Source: Anaerolineae bacterium (lineage in GTDB: Bacteria; Chloroflexota; Anaerolineae; Anaerolineales; UBA11858). Taken from it: a stretch of 64,000 nucleotides of DNA. Positions 1 to 63,972 of the stretch are shown in pieces (positions within the stretch are counted from its first letter, which is position 1; each line of letters starts with the position of its first letter). The position numbers and the translations under genes are program-made. The DNA is taken from the NCBI GenBank assembly GCA_011176615.1, contig DUEG01000001.1:209-64208 (forward strand), read 5' to 3'. The notes beneath the pieces are model-generated. The model searched no databases and had not been told where the DNA came from. It worked only from the letters and a program-made list of their open reading frames with translations.

Positions 1-392
1 TACTCTCCAATCTAATCTGGGCTCGCTTAGTGGATCGGTCTGGGAGTCGTCGAATGTTGTTCTTTTGTGCCATTATTTCGACTTTGACGCCTTTATCGGC
101 TATTGTTCTCGGCTCAATGGGGTGGCTCGCATTGTTACCAGTATTCTTTCTCGCCGGAGCAGCCTTTGATGGACGTAAAGTTGGTTTTCAGAGTGCACTC
201 CTTGAACTGGCTCCAGCCGCAAAACGAGGCACCTATGCAGGACTCAACACCGTACTAACCTTACCTATAGCCTTTCTAACCTTGATTGCTGGTTTGTTCC
301 TACAAAAATGGTCTTATAATGTTCTCTTTTTCTTTACCGCAGTTTTTATTGGAGCAGGCGCAATATTAATACATCGTTGGGCATCCCAATAA
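1..392 (+). CDS. 3' fragment of a polytopic membrane transporter gene (MFS-like); the 5' end lies outside the window
   Basis: The frame is open from the window edge to TAA 390-392. The product is a run of hydrophobic helices with short charged loops (..FDGRKVGFQSALLELAPAAKRGTYAGLN..), like the C-terminal half of MFS permeases. The family call is by resemblance only. Confidence 0.45.
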   Translation, partial: LSNLIWARLVDRSGSRRMLFFCAIISTLTPLSAIVLGSMGWLALLPVFFLAGAAFDGRKVGFQSALLELAPAAKRGTYAGLNTVLTLPIAFLTLIAGLFLQKWSYNVLFFFTAVFIGAGAILIHRWASQ

Positions 393-486
393 ATGCATTG
401 TTTATAATGGTAATCACGAGGCAAACAGGGATAATTTTTTAACAAGATCTTCTTTTAACAATCAATTAACAGTTTTACAGATATCC

Positions 487-515
487 TTGACATGTAAAGA
501 AATTTATGCAATAAT
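487..515 (+). promoter_or_regulatory. sigma70-type promoter of the SRAP gene
   Basis: TTGACA at 487-492, a 17-nt spacer, then an extended -10 TGcAATAAT at 507-515. The TTG that opens the tracked ORF at 487 is the -35 box itself. Confidence 0.5.
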
Positions 516-582
516 CACTATGCGCTCTTTGGCCTGCCCCCCTCAGGTCAAGGGGCGCCTTTGTCTACACAAGGAGTTTAAC

Positions 583-1269
583 ATGTGCGGTCGCTTCACT
601 TTAACAACGGACCCCGAGCAACTTCAAATTGCATTCCCATGGGTTTCTTTTCCGTTGAATATTAAGGAATTTAAACCTCACTATAACATCGCTCCAACCC
701 AACCTGTTGCTGTTATCCCAAATACCCAAGAGAAAAAATTGGACTTCTTCGTTTGGGGATTAATTCCTTATTGGGCAAAGGATCCAAAAATTGGCAGTAG
801 ATTAATTAATGCAAGAGCAGAGAGCCTGTCTCAAAAACCTTCTTTCAGAAATGCGTTTCGGAGAAGGCGATGCCTGATATTAGCAGATGGTTTCTATGAA
901 TGGAAACTAGAGACCAACAAAAAAACCAAAATCCCATATTATGTTCGTATGAAAAATCATCGTCCCTTCGGTCTTGCGGGCTTATGGGAATTGTGGCATG
1001 GAAAAGATGGTTCCGTGATTAAATCTTGTAGTATTATCACAACAACGCCAAACGCCCTGTTAGAACCGATACACAACCGAATGCCAGCGATTATCTCTCC
1101 CAATGCATACGAGAAATGGCTTGCAACAGAAGAGAAATCACCAGACGAATTGCAATCGCTTCTAATCTCTTACCCCCCTGATGAAATGGATGCCTTTCCG
1201 GTTTCAAGATTTGTAAACAATCCAGTAAACGATACTGTAGAGTGCATTACTCCTTTAATAAATCGTTAG
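583..1269 (+). CDS. SOS-response-associated peptidase (SRAP/YedK family, abasic-site DNA-protein crosslinking)
   Basis: The internal ATG at 583 is preceded by AAGGAG (571-576) and gives the family-defining N-terminus MCGRF (catalytic Cys2). HNRMP and the GFYEW-type core motifs are present. The upstream 32 codons of the tracked ORF overlap the promoter. Confidence 0.85.
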   Translation: MCGRFTLTTDPEQLQIAFPWVSFPLNIKEFKPHYNIAPTQPVAVIPNTQEKKLDFFVWGLIPYWAKDPKIGSRLINARAESLSQKPSFRNAFRRRRCLILADGFYEWKLETNKKTKIPYYVRMKNHRPFGLAGLWELWHGKDGSVIKSCSIITTTPNALLEPIHNRMPAIISPNAYEKWLATEEKSPDELQSLLISYPPDEMDAFPVSRFVNNPVNDTVECITPLINR

Positions 1270-1271
1270 AT

Positions 1272-2642
1272 ATGAATAAATTTGATTTCAAGATACATTC
1301 TTACGCAAATGATGATAGGCTGGCAAAAATCTATCATATTTTAAATTCTGCCCTTAATGCTGTTGACCCTTATCGCGCCATTCTTGAAAACGTAAGAAGG
1401 GATAATGAACGTCTATTTATAAACAATAACAGATTTAACCTTAACAAATTCAATAGTATCTATATAATTGGCGCAGGCAAAGCAGGTGCACCTATGGCAA
1501 GAGCCATAGAAGATATTCTAGGGCAAACGATAACAAAAGGAGTTGTTGTAATTAAACAACATTCTCCACAGCAATCAAACTCGACAACAAACAAAATTAA
1601 ATTAAGAACCGCCTCCCATCCCATCCCAAACCAGGCGGGGGTTCAAGGGACATCTGAGATCCTCCAATTATTAGACAAGGCTACTGAAAATGACCTTGTC
1701 CTTTGTCTTATATCCGGTGGCGGTTCCGCTCTCCTAACAGCGCCTGTTCCATCCATTTCCCTTGATGATCTTCAAATAATGACAAAACAATTGCTTACCT
1801 GTGGCGCAACTATCCACGAAATCAATACTTTGCGAAAACATCTCTCATTGGTCAAAGGCGGTGGTATTGCCAAACATGCTGCCCCCGCTCAAATTATCTC
1901 ACTGATTCTCTCGGACGTAGTTGGCGATCCTTTAGATGTAATCGCTTCCGGTCCAACATCCCCAGATTCCACAACCTATTCTGATTGTATTAATATACTA
2001 AGAAAGTATGATCTGTATAATGCAATCCCCAAATCTATCCAAACTTATATAAATGCTGGAAACCAAGGCGATTATCCAGAAACGCCCAAACCCAAGGATC
2101 CAATCTTCAATCGAATTATCAATTTGATCGTTGGAAATAACCTCATTGCTGCAAAAGCAGCCCAAAAACAAGCACAAGCAGAAGGCTTTAATGCTTTAAT
2201 CTTCTCAACGGAAATACAAGGTGAAGCCAGAGAGGTTGGAAAAGTTCTTGCTGCTGTTGCAAAACAAATCACAAAATCAAACGATCCGGTTCCACGACCA
2301 GCATGCATTATTTTTGGAGGCGAAACAACAGTAACAGTTAGAGGACAAGGGTTAGGAGGCAGGAATTTAGAGTTAGCATTAAGCACTGTTTCCGAAGTTG
2401 CCGGTTTGGAAGATATCGCAATCATCACACTTGCTACAGACGGAGATGATGGACCGACCCATACAGCCGGTGCGATCGTCACCGGAGAAACATACACCAG
2501 GGCGAAAAAACGAGGTCTTGATCCAATTAAATATCTTATTAATAATGATTCTTATCATTTCTTCGAACCACTTGGGAATTTACTAATTCCTGGTCTTACA
2601 GAGACCAATGTCAACGATTTGGCATTTATCTTCGCGTTTTGA
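1272..2642 (+). CDS. glycerate 2-kinase / hydroxypyruvate reductase-like protein (DUF4147 + MOFRL family)
   Basis: The N-terminal IIGAGKAGAPMA and C-terminal IFGGETTVTVRGQGLGGRNLELAL motifs are typical of MOFRL glycerate kinases. ATG 1272 lies 2 nt after the SRAP stop. Confidence 0.8.
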   Translation: MNKFDFKIHSYANDDRLAKIYHILNSALNAVDPYRAILENVRRDNERLFINNNRFNLNKFNSIYIIGAGKAGAPMARAIEDILGQTITKGVVVIKQHSPQQSNSTTNKIKLRTASHPIPNQAGVQGTSEILQLLDKATENDLVLCLISGGGSALLTAPVPSISLDDLQIMTKQLLTCGATIHEINTLRKHLSLVKGGGIAKHAAPAQIISLILSDVVGDPLDVIASGPTSPDSTTYSDCINILRKYDLYNAIPKSIQTYINAGNQGDYPETPKPKDPIFNRIINLIVGNNLIAAKAAQKQAQAEGFNALIFSTEIQGEAREVGKVLAAVAKQITKSNDPVPRPACIIFGGETTVTVRGQGLGGRNLELALSTVSEVAGLEDIAIITLATDGDDGPTHTAGAIVTGETYTRAKKRGLDPIKYLINNDSYHFFEPLGNLLIPGLTETNVNDLAFIFAF

Positions 2643-2714
2643 GCACAATCCCCATACAACAATCACAATAACTAGTCAAATCTTAAGAAAAAATAACCAA
2701 TATCAACTTGTTGT

Positions 2715-2794
2715 CCATAAGGTGACATTTTCGCTGAACACTTACAGGGTGTCAAATTCGCTGAACATCTACAATAGAACGCGTTCCCTTGACA
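2715..2794 (+). repeat. copy 1 of an ~80-bp promoter-upstream module (two 20-bp direct repeats 27 bp apart, an AGAACGCG box, then the -35)
   Basis: GGTGACATTTTCGCTGAACA (2721-2740) and GGTGTCAAATTCGCTGAACA (2748-2767); AGAACGCG at 2776-2783; TTGACA at 2789-2794. It aligns at about 75% identity by eye to 63869-63949. Confidence 0.7.
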
Positions 2795-2816
2795 TCTCTA
2801 AAACCTCTGGTAAACT
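2789..2816 (+). promoter_or_regulatory. sigma70-type promoter of the proS leader
   Basis: TTGACA at 2789-2794, a 16-nt spacer, then TGgTAAACT (extended -10, hexamer at 2811-2816). Confidence 0.5.
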
Positions 2817-2826
2817 AACCAACATC

Positions 2827-2883
2827 ATGAAAGTGGTTATGTCTTCCCCATTCCCAGTCCCTAGTATCCGAAACCTCCGATAG
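2827..2883 (+). other. candidate 18-codon leader mini-ORF (MKVVMSSPFPVPSIRNLR) in the proS leader
   Basis: The ATG lies 3-5 nt after the predicted TSS, so the mini-ORF is effectively leaderless. Three Pro codons fall within five codons (CCA 2848, CCA 2854, CCT 2860). TAG is at 2881-2883, and the terminator hairpin lies 49 nt downstream. Confidence 0.3.
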
Positions 2884-2931
2884 GCTTTCGATCTTTTGGG
2901 TTGGTAGACCACAATAATCTTGGACATGACT

Positions 2932-2962
2932 ACCCTCCGGATGAGAAAGCCGGAGGGTTTTT
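2932..2962 (+). terminator. intrinsic terminator / attenuator hairpin upstream of proS
   Basis: ACCCTCCGG (2932-2940) pairs with CCGGAGGGT (2950-2958) around a 9-nt loop, followed by TTTTT. It sits between the promoter and the proS ATG at 3009. Confidence 0.6.
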
Positions 2963-3008
2963 AATTTGAACAAGCCATTAAATCAGGCTATTTTTATGGA
3001 GGCTAAAA

Positions 3009-4781
3009 ATGCGAATGTCTCATCTTTTTGGACGAACTTTGCGAGAAGCACCTGCAGATGCTGAGATCCCAAGCCATAAGTTACTCGTACGTGCTGGTTT
3101 CATCCGCCAACTGGCAGCCGGTATTTTTACTGCGATGCCCTTAGCAAAGCGTTCATTGACGAAGCTCGAGAACATCATGAGAGAAGAAATGAATGCAATC
3201 GGGGGACAAGAACTTACCATGCCCGTTGTTCATCCCGCTGAACTGTGGCAAGAGACAGGTCGTTGGTATCAAATTGGGTCCGAGATGGGGCGCTTCAAGG
3301 ACAAGAATAACCGCGATATGGTCCTTGCCATGACTCATGAAGAAGTAGTCGCAGATTTGGTTCGAAAAGAGATCCATTCCTATCGTCAACTACCCATTTT
3401 AATCTATCATATCCAAACAAAATGGCGAGACGATCCACGTCCAAGAGCCGGACTGATTCGCGTACGCGAATTTACAATGAAGGATAGTTACAGTTTAGAC
3501 GCAACATGGGAAGGATTGGACAAACAATACCGCGCCCATTACCAAGCATATTTCAATATCTTTCACCGTTCAGGGTTACCCGTAATTGCTGTTAAATCCG
3601 ACGTCGGGATGATGGGTGGACAAATGGCTCATGAATTCATGTACCTGACCCCAATCGGTGAAGATACGTTACTTCTTTGCGATGATTGCGGTTATTCTGC
3701 CAATAGGCAAATCGCTAGATTCAAAAAGCATATTCTCCCAACCGAACCTCCACTACCAATCGAGAAAATTGCCACACCCGAAATCAAAACAATCGAAGAC
3801 CTAGCGAATTTTCTAGACATTCCAAAAGAGAAAACCGCAAAGGCTGTCTTTTTGATTGCGAGTATTACTGATAACAATGAAACAATCGATAAATTTGTCT
3901 TCGCTATCGTTCGGGGAGATATGGACCTCAACGAAACAAAACTTACCAATGCTTTGAAAGCCAAAGAACTGCGACCAGCGACCGAAGAGGAAATTCTCGC
4001 GGTTGGTGCTGTTCCAGGATATGCTTCACCAGTAGGTTTGAACGATGTGCTAATAGTTGTCGATAATATCATCCCCAAATCATCAAACCTCGTTGCCGGC
4101 GCAAACGAGGAAGGATATCACTTTCGGAACGTCAATTATGGACGAGATTACAAAGCGGATATAGTCTCAGATATTGTTGCTGCAAAAGAGGATGACTTGT
4201 GTCCTGTATGTGGACATCCGATGCACACAATTCGAGGAATTGAGGTTGGCAATATATTCAAACTAGGCACGAAATACAGTGAGGCACTTGGATGCACCTT
4301 CCAAGATAAAGACGGGAAAGATAAACCTGTTATCATGGGCTCCTATGGAATTGGGAGCGGACGATTATTAGCCTCTGTTGCTGAAGAACATCACGACGAA
4401 CATGGCCTCATTTGGCCAATCACCGTAGCACCTTATCAAGTACATCTAATCATACTGCCAGGCAAAGATAAGAAAGAGGTACAGGAAACTGCCGAGCGAC
4501 TCTATCAAAATATCAAAGAAGCAGGAATTGAAGTCCTTTTCGATGACAGGAATGAAAGCCCTGGCGTTAAATTCAACGATGCTGATTTAATCGGTAATCC
4601 CTTACGAGTTACAGTCAGCCAAAGATCATTAAATAAAAATTGCGTTGAATTTAAAAGACGTGATCAGAAGGAAAAGACAATGATACCTCTTGAGGCAATC
4701 ATCCCTTATCTAAAAAAATCGATCACAGAATTAGAGATGGAGATAAAGGAAAAAGAGGTCGAGGTACCATTTACAGACTAA
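3009..4781 (+). CDS. proS: prolyl-tRNA synthetase, bacterial type with inserted editing domain
   Basis: 590 aa. The N-terminus MRMSHLFGRTLREAPADAEIPSHKLLVRAGFIRQ matches the ProRS signature. Class II core motifs are present, with a large insertion between motifs 2 and 3. GGAGG lies 5 nt upstream of the ATG. Confidence 0.95.
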   Translation: MRMSHLFGRTLREAPADAEIPSHKLLVRAGFIRQLAAGIFTAMPLAKRSLTKLENIMREEMNAIGGQELTMPVVHPAELWQETGRWYQIGSEMGRFKDKNNRDMVLAMTHEEVVADLVRKEIHSYRQLPILIYHIQTKWRDDPRPRAGLIRVREFTMKDSYSLDATWEGLDKQYRAHYQAYFNIFHRSGLPVIAVKSDVGMMGGQMAHEFMYLTPIGEDTLLLCDDCGYSANRQIARFKKHILPTEPPLPIEKIATPEIKTIEDLANFLDIPKEKTAKAVFLIASITDNNETIDKFVFAIVRGDMDLNETKLTNALKAKELRPATEEEILAVGAVPGYASPVGLNDVLIVVDNIIPKSSNLVAGANEEGYHFRNVNYGRDYKADIVSDIVAAKEDDLCPVCGHPMHTIRGIEVGNIFKLGTKYSEALGCTFQDKDGKDKPVIMGSYGIGSGRLLASVAEEHHDEHGLIWPITVAPYQVHLIILPGKDKKEVQETAERLYQNIKEAGIEVLFDDRNESPGVKFNDADLIGNPLRVTVSQRSLNKNCVEFKRRDQKEKTMIPLEAIIPYLKKSITELEMEIKEKEVEVPFTD

Positions 4782-4814
4782 ATCGCTGATAAATTACAAA
4801 TGACAAGGAATAAT

Positions 4815-4860
4815 AATAAGGCATCTAAAACAACAACTCAGATGCCTTATTATTTTGTTT
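4815..4860. terminator. bidirectional intrinsic terminator between proS (+) and the SCP2 gene (-)
   Basis: A perfect 12-bp stem, AATAAGGCATCT (4815-4826) with AGATGCCTTATT (4840-4851). It is followed by ATTTTGTTT on the plus strand and preceded by an A/T-rich run. Confidence 0.6.
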
Positions 4861-4869
4861 ATTGGCTTA

Positions 4870-5199
4870 TTAACGTAGTTTGAAGAAGTTTGTTAACTTC
4901 ATCGCCAGATTTAGATCCCCAGCCAATTTAAGTTTTCCTTGCATAAATGCCTTCATCCCATCTATTTTCCCTAAGATGACATTTTTGTAATCCTCGGAAT
5001 CAGCCGTTAAAGTCATTTTAGGATTTTCTGCAACACCGGACTCCACCTCACATTGCCCGTCCTTAATCTTGATAATCCAATCACCAGCCTCTTCCCCCGT
5101 CAGATGATATTGGATCACTGCATCTACGCCTATCGCTTTTTCAGGGATAAATGCTTTTGGCATTCTATTCATTAAAGTTTCAATTGTTATCTCCGACAT
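4870..5199 (-). CDS. SCP2 (sterol carrier protein 2-like) lipid-binding domain protein
   Basis: 109 aa. The C-terminal GKIDGMKAFMQGKLKLAGDLNLAMKL is the SCP2 hallmark. AGGAG SD present. Starts 15 nt downstream of the thiolase stop. Confidence 0.75.
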   Translation of the reverse strand: MSEITIETLMNRMPKAFIPEKAIGVDAVIQYHLTGEEAGDWIIKIKDGQCEVESGVAENPKMTLTADSEDYKNVILGKIDGMKAFMQGKLKLAGDLNLAMKLTNFFKLR

Positions 5200-5214
5200 T
5201 TTCTTCTCCTTGAA

Positions 5215-6414
5215 TTAGTTCATATTTTGGAACACGCCAGCCGCGCCCATACCACCGCCAATGCACATGGTTACCAAACCGAATTCTACGTCACGTCGCT
5301 TCATTTCATAGAGAATTTGGGTGGTAAGCTTCGCTCCCGTGCACCCCAAAGGATGCCCAAGTGCAATTGCCCCGCCGTTAACATTGGTAATTTCTTCATT
5401 TAAACCGAGCGTACGAACAACTGCTACCGATTGCGCTGCAAACGCTTCATTTAATTCAATCAAGCCAAAATCATCTAATGACATACCCGTGATTTTCAAA
5501 ACCTTTGGAACCGCAGAAATTGGGCCAACACCCATAATCTCCGGGGGAACCCCTGCTGCCGCGAAGGCAATAAAACGCGCCATCGGCTTTAGTCCAAGAG
5601 ATTCCGCCTTTGCCCTGGACATTATTAGTACTGCAGCAGCACCATCACTCATTTGCGATGAGTTTCCAGCAGTGACTGTACCGCCCTCTTTGAAAACTGC
5701 CCTTAATTTAGCAAGCGCCTCCATGCTTGTATCCTTACGCGGTCCTTCATCCCGGCTGAAAACAAATTTCTTGGTTCTCGTTTTTCCATTGTGCCCCTCC
5801 ACAATTTCTACTTCCAAAGGAACAATTTCGGGATCAAATCGACCAGATTCGACCGCAGCGACTGCTCTCTGGTTACTCCGTAATGCAAAAGCATCCTGAT
5901 CTTCGCGGGTCACGCCATATTGCTCGGCAACATTTTCTGCAGTTAAGCCCATACTTGTAAACGCTTCAGGATAATCAACTGCCAAAGAAGGAGTAGGTGC
6001 GAACTTAATACCAGTCATTGGAACCATGCTCATTGACTCAACACCACCCGCAATCGCCACTTCTGTTTGACCAGCCATAATGGAAAAAGCCGCATGGGCA
6101 ATGCTCTGCATTCCAGATGAACAAAATCGATTTATCGTTTCTGCTGGCACAGACACTGGTAAACCAGCTCTAAAGCCAATTAAACGAGCAATGTTCATTC
6201 CTTGAGGTCCTTCTGGGAAGGCACACCCGAGAATCAAATCATCAATTTCCTTGGAATCAAGGACATCAACACGCTTCAGCAATTCCAGAATCACAGCCGT
6301 ACCCATTTCCTCCGATCTACATGTTGCCAAACTGCCTCTCTTTGCCTTACCAATCGCAGTTCGTACTGCTGCTACTATGACAGGATCGCGTGAGGGATCA
6401 TTTTTTGTAATCAT
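5215..6414 (-). CDS. acetyl-CoA acetyltransferase / 3-ketoacyl-CoA thiolase
   Basis: 399 aa. Active-site contexts are present: NRFCSSGMQ (Cys), NEAFAAQ, GGAIALGHPLGCTGA (His and Cys). AGGAG SD present. Confidence 0.9.
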   Translation of the reverse strand: MITKNDPSRDPVIVAAVRTAIGKAKRGSLATCRSEEMGTAVILELLKRVDVLDSKEIDDLILGCAFPEGPQGMNIARLIGFRAGLPVSVPAETINRFCSSGMQSIAHAAFSIMAGQTEVAIAGGVESMSMVPMTGIKFAPTPSLAVDYPEAFTSMGLTAENVAEQYGVTREDQDAFALRSNQRAVAAVESGRFDPEIVPLEVEIVEGHNGKTRTKKFVFSRDEGPRKDTSMEALAKLRAVFKEGGTVTAGNSSQMSDGAAAVLIMSRAKAESLGLKPMARFIAFAAAGVPPEIMGVGPISAVPKVLKITGMSLDDFGLIELNEAFAAQSVAVVRTLGLNEEITNVNGGAIALGHPLGCTGAKLTTQILYEMKRRDVEFGLVTMCIGGGMGAAGVFQNMN

Positions 6415-17894: not shown

Positions 17895-17969
17895 CGGGGC
17901 GTGGCGCAGTCCGGCTAGCGCGCTACAATGGGGTTGTAGAGGTCCCGGGTTCGAATCCCGGCGCCCCGA
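17895..17969 (+). tRNA. tRNA-Pro (anticodon GGG)
   Basis: Cloverleaf folded by hand. Acceptor CGGGGCG/CGCCCCG with C1:G72 and A73 (bacterial tRNA-Pro identity). D stem GCGC/GCGC. Anticodon stem CTACA/TGTAG with loop AT-GGG-GT. Variable loop AGGTC. T arm CCGGG-TTCGAAT-CCCGG. No encoded CCA. Confidence 0.9.
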
Positions 17970-17976
17970 CTTTTTG

Positions 17977-18114: not shown

Positions 18115-19194
18115 ATGGCAAACATTCTTCCGAATGGCAAACAAAGCATATCTCGCAGAGATTTTATCAAATTAAGTCTACTTGGATTAAGCGGATTGGG
18201 GTTTATTAAGTTTCCACTTCCTCAAGATGCCTATGAGGTTCCAACAAATGTCATTGGAAGAGTAACTGTTGACCGAGTTGCACCAATCTTCGAGGAATCA
18301 CGATTCAATAGCAGTATTATCCGTTATACCCAAAAAGACGAACTATTAAATATTTACTATGAATTAACCCCCATTGAGGGACCAGTATATAATCCTCATT
18401 GGTATCGAGTTTGGGGCGGATATATCCATAGTGCATATGTCCAGCGCACTTATATCCGCTTTAATGATCCTCTTGACAAAATACCTCAAAACAACCAATT
18501 AGCAGAAGTCACCGTCCCTTTCACCCAGGCTTTTCGATATTCAAACCAAGATGGATGGACAAAAGCATATCGCTTATACTATCTCACGACTCATTGGATT
18601 ACAAATATCGCTGAAGGTCCTGATGGACAAGCATGGTATGAGTTAACTTCAGAAGTGGATAAATATTTAAAATATTATGTCCCCGCTCACCATTTGAGAC
18701 CAATACCTGATGAAGAAATCTCGCCCATCTCTCCCGAGTTACCCTATGCAGCAAAACATATTGAAGTCTCCTTGAGCAAACAGTACCTAACTGCCTACGA
18801 AGAAGACAATATTGTGTATGGCACAAAGATATCATCAGGTTTACCAGGGAGAGAAGTCCCTGATGGAACACAAACCCCAAAAGGTCGCTTTCATATCACA
18901 TCAAAGATGCCATCAAAACATATGGGGACTATAGAGGCAAGTGGAGCACCGGAAGGATATACATTACCAGGCGTTCCTTGGACGAGTTTTTTTATTTTCG
19001 AATCCGGAGTTGCATTTCACGGAACCTTCTGGCATGATAACTTTGGAATGCCGATGAGCCATGGTTGTATCAATATGCGTACTGAAGACGCAAAATGGCT
19101 ATTTCGGTGGGTCTCACCAATATATAAAACTCCAATAAAAAGTTCGGAAGACTGGGACGTGCGAGGGTACGGAACACAGGTTATAATCCACTGA
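18115..19194 (+). CDS. L,D-transpeptidase (YkuD) family protein with a twin-arginine signal
   Basis: N-terminal SRRDFIKLSLLGLSG (Tat motif). C-terminal YkuD catalytic context HGTFWHDNFGMPMSHGCINM. Confidence 0.85.
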   Translation: MANILPNGKQSISRRDFIKLSLLGLSGLGFIKFPLPQDAYEVPTNVIGRVTVDRVAPIFEESRFNSSIIRYTQKDELLNIYYELTPIEGPVYNPHWYRVWGGYIHSAYVQRTYIRFNDPLDKIPQNNQLAEVTVPFTQAFRYSNQDGWTKAYRLYYLTTHWITNIAEGPDGQAWYELTSEVDKYLKYYVPAHHLRPIPDEEISPISPELPYAAKHIEVSLSKQYLTAYEEDNIVYGTKISSGLPGREVPDGTQTPKGRFHITSKMPSKHMGTIEASGAPEGYTLPGVPWTSFFIFESGVAFHGTFWHDNFGMPMSHGCINMRTEDAKWLFRWVSPIYKTPIKSSEDWDVRGYGTQVIIH

Positions 19195-19292: not shown

Positions 19293-20351
19293 ATGTCAAT
19301 AAATATTTCACGCCGAGATTTCATCAAATTGTCTGGGTTAGGTTTTGGTTCATTTGCCGCTCGTTCTCTAAAAGATTGGCTTCCCCCTAATGAAGGCTGG
19401 GAATCTGAGCCAATCGGTGTGGGTCGAATAACAGTTCACGATGTCGATGTTTTCGCCGTACCAGATATCGATAGCAAACCGATCGATATAAAATATCGAG
19501 ATCATCTTGTCCCAATTTTCGAAGAAATCTTACCGCCAAACGCAATCCCCTCCACACCTAGGTGGTACCGCATTGATCGTGGTTATATGTTCAGTGCATA
19601 TATTCAAAGAGTTGATAGTCGTCATATAAATGAACCGGTTTCGTGGGTACCTGAAAGAGGCTGGCTAGCTGAAGTCACGGTTCCATATACAAGAACCTAC
19701 CGCTATACAGCAACATATGGATGGGTACCTTTATATCGCCTGTACTACGAATCCGTTCACTGGGTTACGGGAGTTGAAGAAGGGCCGGATAAACACCCAT
19801 GGTACAAGATCACCGATGAATTATTACATATTGATTACCACGTACCTGCTTCACATCTGCGAATTATCAATCCAAAAGAACTAACACCAATATCGCCTTC
19901 TGTACCCCCAGAAAAAAAACGCATTGAAGTTTCATTAAGAGATCAAACGTTAACAGCATATGAGGATGACAAAGTTGTCTTATTCACTTTGGTTTCCACA
20001 GGCATTCCATCTCTTAGAACAACAAGTAACGGGGTTCCTACGTCAACACCCACTGGTCGATTTACAATCGACCTTAAAATGCCATCAAAACATATGGGGG
20101 ATGGAAAACTTACTGACAAAATTTTTGCGTATGAACTGCCAGGCGTGCCCTGGGTTTGTTTTTTTCACGAAACTGGCGTTGCCTTTCACGGTACTTATTG
20201 GCATCATAATTTTGGAAGAAAAATGAGCCATGGCTGTGTCAACATGCATACTGAAGAGGCAAAATGGTTATATCGTTGGACTATGCCCGAAGCAGGACCC
20301 TATGATTGGGAACGTAAAGGTCATGGTACAAGAGTTAAAGTATATGTTTAA
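19293..20351 (+). CDS. L,D-transpeptidase (YkuD) family protein with a twin-arginine signal (tandem paralog)
   Basis: N-terminal SRRDFIKLSGLGFG. C-terminal HGTYWHHNFGRKMSHGCVNM. Collinear with 18115-19194 over its full length. Confidence 0.85.
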   Translation: MSINISRRDFIKLSGLGFGSFAARSLKDWLPPNEGWESEPIGVGRITVHDVDVFAVPDIDSKPIDIKYRDHLVPIFEEILPPNAIPSTPRWYRIDRGYMFSAYIQRVDSRHINEPVSWVPERGWLAEVTVPYTRTYRYTATYGWVPLYRLYYESVHWVTGVEEGPDKHPWYKITDELLHIDYHVPASHLRIINPKELTPISPSVPPEKKRIEVSLRDQTLTAYEDDKVVLFTLVSTGIPSLRTTSNGVPTSTPTGRFTIDLKMPSKHMGDGKLTDKIFAYELPGVPWVCFFHETGVAFHGTYWHHNFGRKMSHGCVNMHTEEAKWLYRWTMPEAGPYDWERKGHGTRVKVYV

Positions 20352-63687: not shown

Positions 63688-63868
63688 AAGACCAATACAT
63701 TTTCGTATGACTGTTATACCCAACGAAAGCGCGCGATAATCCGTCTCACTTGACCCAGGGAAAACCCTTTAAACCCGGCAGCCTGTACTGCGTTAATATG
63801 ATTACAGACTACCATCTGCATGCCTTCCTAATGTTTGATTTCTTTAATCGTCAATGCCAACTTTTTAT

Positions 63869-63972
63869 CCATAGGGTGACATTTCCATTGAACACTTAAG
63901 GGGTACCAATTTCGCTAAGCAATAAAAAAGACGCGCAGAATATTTGACATTTACTGATTAATGTTATATATT
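63869..63972 (+). repeat. copy 2 of the ~80-bp promoter-upstream module plus its promoter, facing out of the window
   Basis: GGTGACATTTCCATTGAACA (63875-63894) and GGTACCAATTTCGCTAAGCA (63902-63921), 27 bp apart. AAGACGCG at 63928-63935. TTGACA at 63944-63949, a 17-nt spacer, then TATATT at 63967-63972. Confidence 0.65.

Follow-up and report, generated by a model that had tools for sequence, protein, structure and literature searches.

The window, i.e. the whole 64-kb stretch of DNA analysed here, carries the gene proS near its left end, preceded by a leader with a small open reading frame and a terminator hairpin, while a gene encoding 786 amino acids starts just beyond its right end. A promoter was identified upstream of each gene, and directly upstream of each promoter lies one copy of a repeated module (copies A and B; see Table 1 for coordinates). 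A repeat search within the window found positions 2698-2767 and 63852-63921 to be 79% identical over 70 nt without gaps and in the same orientation, and the wider 141-nt stretches around both copies had a mean column identity of 76% when aligned with MAFFT. The 20-bp sequence GGTGACATTTTCGCTGAACA was found at 2721-2740 (no mismatches) and, with three mismatches each, at 2748-2767 and 63875-63894 (0.01 expected by chance). The preliminary description of this DNA had reported two such copies, each with two 20-bp direct repeats at an offset of 27 bp and each followed by TTGACA and a -10 hexamer at a spacing of 16-17 nt, and all of these observations were confirmed; the promoter beyond copy B was scored on a sequence 99.3% identical to the window (L005). 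The homology reaches further to the left than had been described, to 2698 in copy A and to approximately 63724 in copy B.

Table 1. Features at the two copies of the module. Positions refer to the window; promoter scores are matches out of 12 in the promoter scan.
Feature	Position	Strand	Details
Transposase 5' relic (copy A)	2683-2718	-	ATG (CAT at 2716-2718), reads MDNKLILVIFS*; stop after 11 codons
Copy A stump	2698-2773	-	Complete IRL, tip ...ACA at 2771-2773, first few transposase codons
Inner subterminal repeat A	2721-2740	-	Presumed transposase-binding site; holds -10 of transposase promoter (minus strand)
Inward promoter of the lost transposase gene	2727-2755	-	TTGACA, 17 nt, GAAAAT; score 10/12
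Outer subterminal repeat A	2748-2767	-	27 bp from inner repeat; TTGACA on minus strand
Host spacer, IS tip to -35	2774-2788		15 nt; surviving copy of target-site duplication; same 15 nt in metagenome contig L109
Predicted host promoter of proS leader	2789-2816	+	TTGACA 2789-2794, 16 nt, TG-n-TAAACT 2811-2816; score 10/12
Small ORF of proS leader	2827-2883	+	MKVVMSSPFPVPSIRNLR*; within leader 2827-2962
Terminator hairpin of proS leader	2933-2962	+	With T-run; followed by proS (3009-4781)
Copy B, older stump of related element	63724-63927	-	Decayed IRL and ~50 decayed transposase codons
Inner subterminal repeat B	63875-63894	-	3 mismatches to GGTGACATTTTCGCTGAACA
Outer subterminal repeat B	63902-63921	-	Degenerate, GGTACCAATTTCGCTAAGCA; from repeat pairing and element-end profile
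Host spacer, decayed tip to -35	63928-63943		16 nt; from sequence, spacing fits the family rule
Predicted host promoter beyond copy B	63944-63972	+	TTGACA 63944-63949, 17 nt, TATATT 63967-63972; score 11/12

A search of Rfam for structured RNAs such as riboswitches, within the module or following it, gave a tRNA elsewhere in the window and only sub-threshold noise around 2640-3020, and a T-box in the proS leader received no support at the Rfam gathering thresholds. An RNA hairpin between the repeats was also rejected: the pairing of UGACAUUU with GGGUGUCA that can be read in copy A is broken in copy B.

The preliminary description had called for further copies to be sought. A core of 20 specified bases (GGTGACATTTNNNNTGAACACTTA) was scanned against one genome per GTDB species and against JGI metagenome contigs, and matched at 28 and 66 places respectively, compared to approximately one match expected (our own estimate from the size of the collections); such DNA-pattern scans sample only those ends which keep the 20-base core. 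The GTDB matches were in Dehalococcoidia, Anaerolineales, Ktedonobacteraceae, Chloroflexia, MAGs labelled Terriglobia and one MAG labelled Eubacteriales. In genomes with several copies, these are identical to the left of the core and through the two repeat units and then diverge right after ...ACA, which indicates the end of a mobile element. At two of the comparative loci (designated by L numbers), L021 and L022, an open reading frame of 438-442 residues lies on the opposite strand and starts at the CAT that adjoins the core on its left; at L022 the whole element could be delimited between TGT...ACA ends (positions 95-1629, 1535 bp). Its left end (IRL) and its right end (IRR) span 52 bp each, and each contains a pair of 20-bp repeats at an offset of 27 bp; a further copy of the repeat, in inverted orientation, lies in codons 4-12 of the transposase gene.

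Both ends were found on one contig for 49 elements (L022, L021 and 47 further), with TGT...ACA tips. The elements are 1.4-1.6 kb long with imperfect inverted ends of approximately 52 bp, and each intact element has one DDE transposase gene, the ATG of which lies about 55 bp from the left tip. Clean target duplications of 16-17 bp were seen at L048, L090, L025, L020, L018, L086 and L116 and for the pair L110/L117. Intact copies occur across the Chloroflexota and in the MAGs labelled Terriglobia. Most of the comparative loci are short-read metagenome assemblies, which can be chimeric at repeated IS copies, and several elements have non-matching flanks.

The transposases matched the NCBIfam model NF033594 (transpos_ISNCY_2) with 378 bits (L022), 396 bits (L012) and 398 bits (L096) against a cutoff of 250, while IS481, the next best model, remained below its cutoff. 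Six residues are near-invariant in 21 full-length transposases (D148, D169, D170, D209, E259 and Q266), and an N-terminal helix-turn-helix is indicated by Pfam matches (HTH_23, HTH_28, HTH_29 and HTH_32) to residues ~9-117. The transposase family is very large, with more than 7800 homologues below E=1e-20; most of these are on contigs of approximately 1.5 kb, which is consistent with a multi-copy repeat, as short-read assemblers tend to isolate such repeats.

A signature of the form D..DD..D..E..Q is given for the IS1202 family in the available text of Siguier et al. (bioRxiv 10.1101/2022.12.17.520857), and the six near-invariant residues fit it. Judged from its sequence, the module is the IRL of an insertion sequence of this family (formerly the IS1202 group of ISNCY), read from the inside outward. 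The element resembles the ISTde1 subgroup, by described features rather than by a tree. In the subgroup descriptions available, ISTde1-type elements are reported from Chloroflexi and Acidobacteria among other phyla (bioRxiv 10.1101/2022.12.17.520857), make target duplications of 15-17 bp (same source and a table in PMC10132070, Hall and colleagues), here 16-17 bp, and share with the present element a length of 1.3-1.7 kb, a single DDE transposase with an N-terminal helix-turn-helix and the D..DD..D..E..Q signature, and TGT termini. The available text of these two family papers reports no target preference for the ISTde1-like subgroup, whereas the IRL tips described here lie 15-18 bp upstream of promoter -35 boxes; nor was any mention found there of paired 20-bp subterminal repeats 27 bp apart or of the promoter which they contain.

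A profile of the element end, built from related elements, had exactly two nhmmer matches in the window, at 2721-2773 (57.6 bits, E=8e-17) and at 63875-63927 (32.9 bits, E=4e-9), and no inverted partner end of either copy was found in the 64 kb at E<100. By blastn, copy A is 95.7% identical over 94 nt to the intact element of L109 and 98% over 49 nt to L096, while its identity with the L074 IRL is 91.7% over 84 nt. It is without the rest of the transposase gene and without a right end; only about the first 7 transposase codons, back to 2698, still match the element, whose intact N-termini read MDNKVILTMKE... (L096). Copy B aligns with L021 at 66% over 239 nt (blastn) and with residues 1-50 of the L096 transposase at 46% identity (blastx, E=3e-9). 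Its tip has mutated from ACA to AAA (63925-63927), and from the start codon (CAT at 63870-63872) the minus-strand frame reads MDKKLALTIKEIKH*, with a stop after 14 codons; the tip, the consensus of the outer repeat and the inward promoter have all been lost. On this evidence the window copies are ordinary relics, a pair of solo IRL stumps of an IS1202/ISNCY-family element.

Being short, dispersed, non-coding and composed of IS-end sequence, the copies could be taken for a MITE, that is, a short non-autonomous element with both ends which the family transposase can still move. That reading is very improbable, since an inverted partner end lies near neither copy, copy B is bordered on its left by the decayed coding part of a transposase gene and not by a right end, and copy B has lost the terminal CA; the preliminary description, too, had judged the module not to be a MITE. 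The 9-mer CAGGGAAAA to the left of copy B was considered as a right-end relic of a MITE and rejected, as blastn and blastx assign this stretch to the decayed coding sequence.

The promoter scan placed the sole promoter inside the module on the opposite strand, facing inward. In copy A 8 nt separate its GAAAAT from the ATG, and the same layout, with 6-9 nt to the ATG, was found in the intact elements of L021, L022 and L096; so short a distance implies a leaderless transposase mRNA. Transcripts from the inward promoter of copy A, still a 10/12 match, could run into the MOFRL-family gene upstream at its 3' end. A circle-junction promoter, joining an outward -35 at one tip to an inward -10 at the other, received no support: although TTGACA stands at the end of some tips, the facing tip has no credible -10.

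The upstream region of proS was aligned between the window, L104/L105 (ProS 86% identical), L106 (83%) and L107 (78%). All keep CCC-TTGACA-N16-TGGTAAACT as well as a proline-codon-rich small ORF, a stem and the terminator. An IS end is present at this promoter in the window, L104/L105 and L106, while no module was recognisable in the alignment of L107, where the upstream gene also differs. As the promoter is kept in L107 without an IS end, it appears to be native to proS and the module an addition. The TTGACA/-10 pairs next to both copies are predicted host promoters and lie outside the repeat. Of the 'dispersed promoter-carrying repeat family' put forward in the preliminary description, the dispersed repeat was upheld, but the promoter-carrying part was not, since the outward TTGACA/-10 pairs are host DNA beyond the tip.

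The intact element on the metagenome contig L109 encodes a transposase of 440 residues. Its IRL together with the next 15 nt (ATAGAACGCG-TTCCC) is 95.7% identical to 2698-2788 of the window, so that copy A looks like a remnant of the same insertion. Taking the 15-nt spacer as a part of the element was rejected, as the flank differs at the same IS type in L074; the match to L109 more likely means that the insertion site is the same. By eye, no second copy of the spacer was seen in the sequence adjacent to either window copy. The place where L109 should have the proS -35 box is occupied by another IS, whose rve-type transposase is unclassified.

The preliminary description had proposed that the module may be a shared cis-regulatory cassette in which a regulator that binds direct repeats, for example a response regulator, has its sites in tandem. 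A cassette of this kind, native to the host and common to a regulon, would look like what is seen twice here, namely paired direct repeats at a constant distance in front of a -35 box. The sequence is, however, a terminal inverted repeat, and the element to which it belongs encodes a transposase and occurs in many phyla-level lineages; beside both copies, what is left of the transposase start codon and N-terminus can still be read. The intact element of another metagenome has the same IRL and the same 15-nt flank, and the 78%-identical ProS relative has the promoter and leader as a conserved unit without the module. The genes downstream of the IRLs on the promoter strand, which the preliminary description had wished to see tabulated, are mutually unrelated (proS, trpS, regulators of the IclR, TetR and MerR types, a kinase and the 786-aa protein of unknown function), which speaks against a shared regulon. 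The copies fall within a known IS family (IS1202/ISNCY), the finding which the preliminary description itself had named as contradicting a cassette, and we regard a native cassette as scarcely credible. The suspicion that the link of the module to promoters is not accidental was borne out.

Beyond the IRL tips the flanks are mutually unrelated in sequence, and promoters were scored in them at defined distances from the tip. Among 38 unique IRL flanks from the DNA-pattern scans, 28 have their best -35/-10 match at an offset of 15-18 nt, counted from the tip to the start of the match. A score of at least 8.5 out of 12 at this offset was obtained in 53% of IRL flanks compared to 1.2% of shuffles (maximum of 13% in 2000), and in 0/12 right-end (IRR) flanks at the expected offset. 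TTGAC was present at offset 15-18 in 18 of the 38 IRL flanks, once elsewhere, and never in right-end flanks. Within complete elements, a strong promoter lay at 13-19 nt from the IRL in 14/37 cases and from the IRR in 1/39 (Fisher p=9e-5).

When 8 further flanks (6 protein-selected, copy B of the window and L104) were pooled with the 38, a sigma-70-type promoter was seen at offset 15-18 in 29/46, with offsets 16 and 17 dominating, and the spacer between the hexamers was most often 17 nt (21 of the pooled promoters). An extended -10 was frequent in these 29 sites (T in 20/29, G in 22/29); as the TG played no part in the selection of sites, its presence argues for real promoters. In the protein-selected set a clear promoter was found at 16-17 nt in four IRL flanks (L110, L111, L113 and L121) and a partial one in L123, while L114, L120 and L122 were without a promoter or had one at the wrong offset; three further flanks abut another IS end and L116 is complex. 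In approximately one third of IRL flanks, no promoter was seen where it would be expected.

Where both duplications can be seen, for example at L048, L090, L025, L020 and L110/L117, the 16-17 bp that are duplicated lie right next to the -35 hexamer, and an element with identical IRLs, present at five sites in one sample series (L038, L039, L043, L094 and L076), has TTGAC[AT] at 17 nt in four of them. A base-pair-precise and oriented association of this IS lineage with promoters is strongly supported by these counts and, as an association, is the new point of the present analysis. We attribute the association to the element itself, which would face the promoter with its IRL at a distance of one duplication upstream of the -35 box. 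It plausibly reflects targeting, as judged from surviving insertions, among which purging of insertions inside genes could enrich those adjacent to promoters.

Taking all of this together, we assign a probability of about 85% to the reading that the module is the IRL of an IS1202-family insertion sequence, that this IS inserts one way, 15-18 bp upstream of a sigma-70-type -35 box, and that the stumps in the window are most likely inert. Insertion would occur in one orientation and leave the IRL tip upstream of the promoter, separated from the -35 box by one target duplication; transposase gene and host gene would then be divergent, and the promoter would keep its native DNA from -36 to -52. 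As the duplication would restore this proximal upstream DNA, promoters would be a safe haven for the element. The two direct repeats are putative binding sites for the N-terminal helix-turn-helix domain of the transposase, and on the opposite strand the outer repeat would provide the TTGACA and the inner repeat the GAAAAT of the transposase's own, apparently leaderless promoter; since the binding repeats form this promoter, the transposase would repress itself. In the window the elements have been deleted down to the IRL and a few codons (copy A), or to a decayed IRL and approximately 50 decayed codons (copy B).

The target -35 box may be read by the same helix-turn-helix, which would recognise TTGACACC or the TGTCACC core of the repeats. 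Two observations suggest that the -35 box is read like the repeats: the TTGACA within the element is 18 nt away from the tip, much as the -35 box outside is 16-17 nt away, and the tips of other insertion sequences (TGTCAA, TGTCAT) lie 15-17 bp from IRL tips (L014, L078, L083, L093, L112 and L115). As the -35 hexamer resembles part of the repeat (TTGACACC, contained in the outer repeat), the transposase may read TTGACA alone and not a whole promoter. These same features would be expected if the transposase recognised only a TTGACA-like word (TGWCA) and inserted 16-17 bp away from it, insertions inside genes being lost afterwards and those at real promoters surviving. This explanation by survivorship is a serious one which we nonetheless consider unlikely, as TTGAC at 15-18 nt is accompanied in nearly every flank by TAnnnT at a spacing of 16-18 nt and by the unselected extended -10 TG, and as the difference between IRL and IRR within the same elements is not predicted by selection against gene disruption alone. 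The strict orientation of the IRL argues for an active, asymmetric mechanism.

A bolder version of the preferred reading can be put forward tentatively, at somewhat less than even odds: an IS1202-family lineage, widespread and occurring in Chloroflexota and MAGs labelled Terriglobia, would integrate where it reads a sigma-70-type promoter, precisely to the base pair and always the same way round, the promoter surviving because exactly the DNA from -36 to -52 is duplicated, and its decayed insertions would seed host promoters with IRL stumps consisting of transposase-binding repeats and a divergent promoter. The signal could be a DNA signature (CC-TTGACA ... TGnTAnAAT) or promoter-bound RNA polymerase. 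Stumps may still fire their inward promoter, transposase supplied from intact copies elsewhere in the genome could bind both repeats of copy A, and host genes such as proS could in this way be wired to transposase levels.

It is a further step to suppose that the stumps have been co-opted, i.e. that they are IS-derived but are kept by selection as regulatory modules at host promoters, whether because the transposase or a domesticated helix-turn-helix relative binds both repeats and modulates the adjacent promoter or because the inward promoter drives a useful divergent or antisense transcript. IS-end stumps at the proS promoter of the window and of relatives with 86% and 83% ProS identity would fit such a role, as would the intact inward promoter of copy A, the frequency of solo IRL stumps (L019, L024, L027, L042, L044, L070, L100 and L102) and the comparison of the window with L104, in which the repeat unit (~77%) is far better conserved than the adjacent spacer of 15-16 nt. 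The shared position is, however, also explained by recurrent insertion at the same promoter, and copy A, at 95.7-98% identity to intact elements, is young and not anciently conserved. Copy B has lost its tip, its outer-repeat consensus and its inward promoter, stump lengths vary freely (11, 14, 16, 32, 34, 76 and 81 codons), as random deletions predict, and the relatives have decayed in different ways: the stump of L104/L105 lost one of the two repeats, with at least 90 transposase codons running to the contig edge in L105, and L106 lost 10 bp of the spacer. Losses of this kind speak against a conserved function of the stumps, co-option appears improbable, and the stumps are most likely inert remnants which do nothing essential.

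Comparable cases are solo remnants of IS ends and IS-derived promoter effects such as the hybrid or outward promoters of IS5, IS1 and IS2. The present case is alike in that IS-derived DNA adjoins host promoters on their upstream side and could affect them, but here the host promoter pre-exists complete, the IS contributes no outward -35, and its own promoter faces inward only. Among eukaryotic retrotransposons, which are tethered by host transcription factors, Ty3 and Ty1 integrate at Pol III genes and Tf1 at Pol II promoters. As with these, integration at a fixed position relative to the landing site of the transcription machinery spares coding sequence, whereas the present element is a bacterial DDE insertion sequence and is not known to be tethered. 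To our knowledge, a bacterial IS that lands at promoters would be a rare counterpart of the promoter-proximal integration of eukaryotic retroelements.

Within the IS1202 family, the ISAba32/ISAjo2 subgroup is described, in the available text of PMC10132070 and bioRxiv 10.1101/2022.12.17.520857, as targeting XerCD (dif, pdif) sites, the IRL abutting the XerC site across a 5-bp duplication. The present element shares with it a strict orientation in which the IRL always faces the target at exactly one target duplication from the recognised site, and the logic of a safe haven is plausible for both; the target of the subgroup is a recombinase site and its duplication 5-6 bp, compared to a sigma-70-type promoter and 16-17 bp here. 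No report of a promoter-targeting IS of the IS1202 family was found in the searchable literature. Promoter targeting, if true, would be a second and different case of site-specific targeting in this family after the dif-hunting ISAba32 group, and it is this, and not the relics in the window, which is of interest. With such targeting, the insertions would show naturally where promoters lie in uncultured Chloroflexota, whose promoters are poorly mapped, and the element could guide the engineering of insertions placed at promoters.

For the window itself the result is a deflationary one, as the module is transposon debris and is unsuited to mining as a regulator-binding motif. It also carries a warning for motif discovery, in which relics of IS ends will appear as 'conserved upstream elements'. 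Short-read contigs of the window organism (L003, L004 and L009) break inside or right after the module, as a dispersed repeat would cause them to do.

The region upstream of proS, the prolyl-tRNA synthetase gene, was compared with its counterparts in three relatives (L104, L106 and L107), and looks like a ribosome-mediated attenuator. The window's leader contains a small, near-leaderless ORF (MKVVMSSPFPVPSIRNLR*) with many proline codons, which reads ...SPPSPVPS... in the relatives and is enclosed by a conserved stem (GUGGU.../...GACCAC); the terminator hairpin shows one compensatory change. There was no match for the leader in Rfam, where the sole hint was a sub-threshold hit to His_leader (16.5 bits). 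A proline-sensing leader peptide for prolyl-tRNA synthetase may be undescribed so far in Anaerolineae.

Locations of the proS leader and other features in the window and comparison loci
Feature	Location	Remark
proS leader	window 2827-2962; L104 836-975; L106 2795-2935; L107 upstream of 2893	
tRNA-Pro(GGG)	window 17895-17970	sole RNA gene detected in window
Gene driven by copy-B promoter, and neighbours	L005 11517-14961	immediately past window's right end
Second, unclassified IS	L109 55-1421	430-residue rve-type transposase

The L104 locus (NODE_118 1-5799) and L005, the locus extending past the right end of the window (NODE_118 50141-70638), were found to belong to one contig of 92.9 kb. Over its last part this contig matches the window at 99.3% identity; its syntenic proS end gave no megablast-level match, and the ProS proteins share 86% identity. 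This points either to a chimeric assembly or to a genome that is a mosaic, through recombination, of two lineages from one sample. The gene read from the copy-B promoter in L005 encodes a protein of 786 residues which has neither a recorded Pfam family nor a match in NCBIfam; next come a gene for an Mrr_N-domain protein and a patatin-like gene, and the three may form a defence island.

A distance of 19 bp separates the second IS in L109 from the IRL of that contig's intact ISNCY-type element. The top NCBIfam matches of the second IS's transposase were far under the cutoff, and this IS has its own subterminal direct-repeat pair (two copies of AAAAGATAATGTTACCGAAC) and a tip ending in TTGACA.

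Among the other comparison loci, the distance between an element end and the tip of another copy or related IS was often exactly 15-17 bp (L014, L078, L083/L084, L093, L112 and L115), and was 32 bp in L034. Tandem dimers, circle junctions or IS tips serving as targets could account for these distances. Flank sequence of 14-18 bp was also found tandemly copied beside element tips, at the IRL in L116 (where GGAACTTTGGCTTGACAT is present 3-4 times) and at the IRR in L021 (2020-2056), L097 and L117; these copies look like footprints of insertion and excision recurring at one site. In MAGs labelled Terriglobia (L012, L014, L020 and L032), variants of one word, TCAAACAGTCAC(A/C), flank several copies of one element, which suggests a repeated target used repeatedly, or paralogous promoters, in that genome.

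Within the window itself, two direct-repeat families (124 nt, 78%; 55 nt, 73%) were observed at 18873-19110 and 20045-20279, with a spacing of approximately 1170 bp, and probably mark paralogous genes in tandem.
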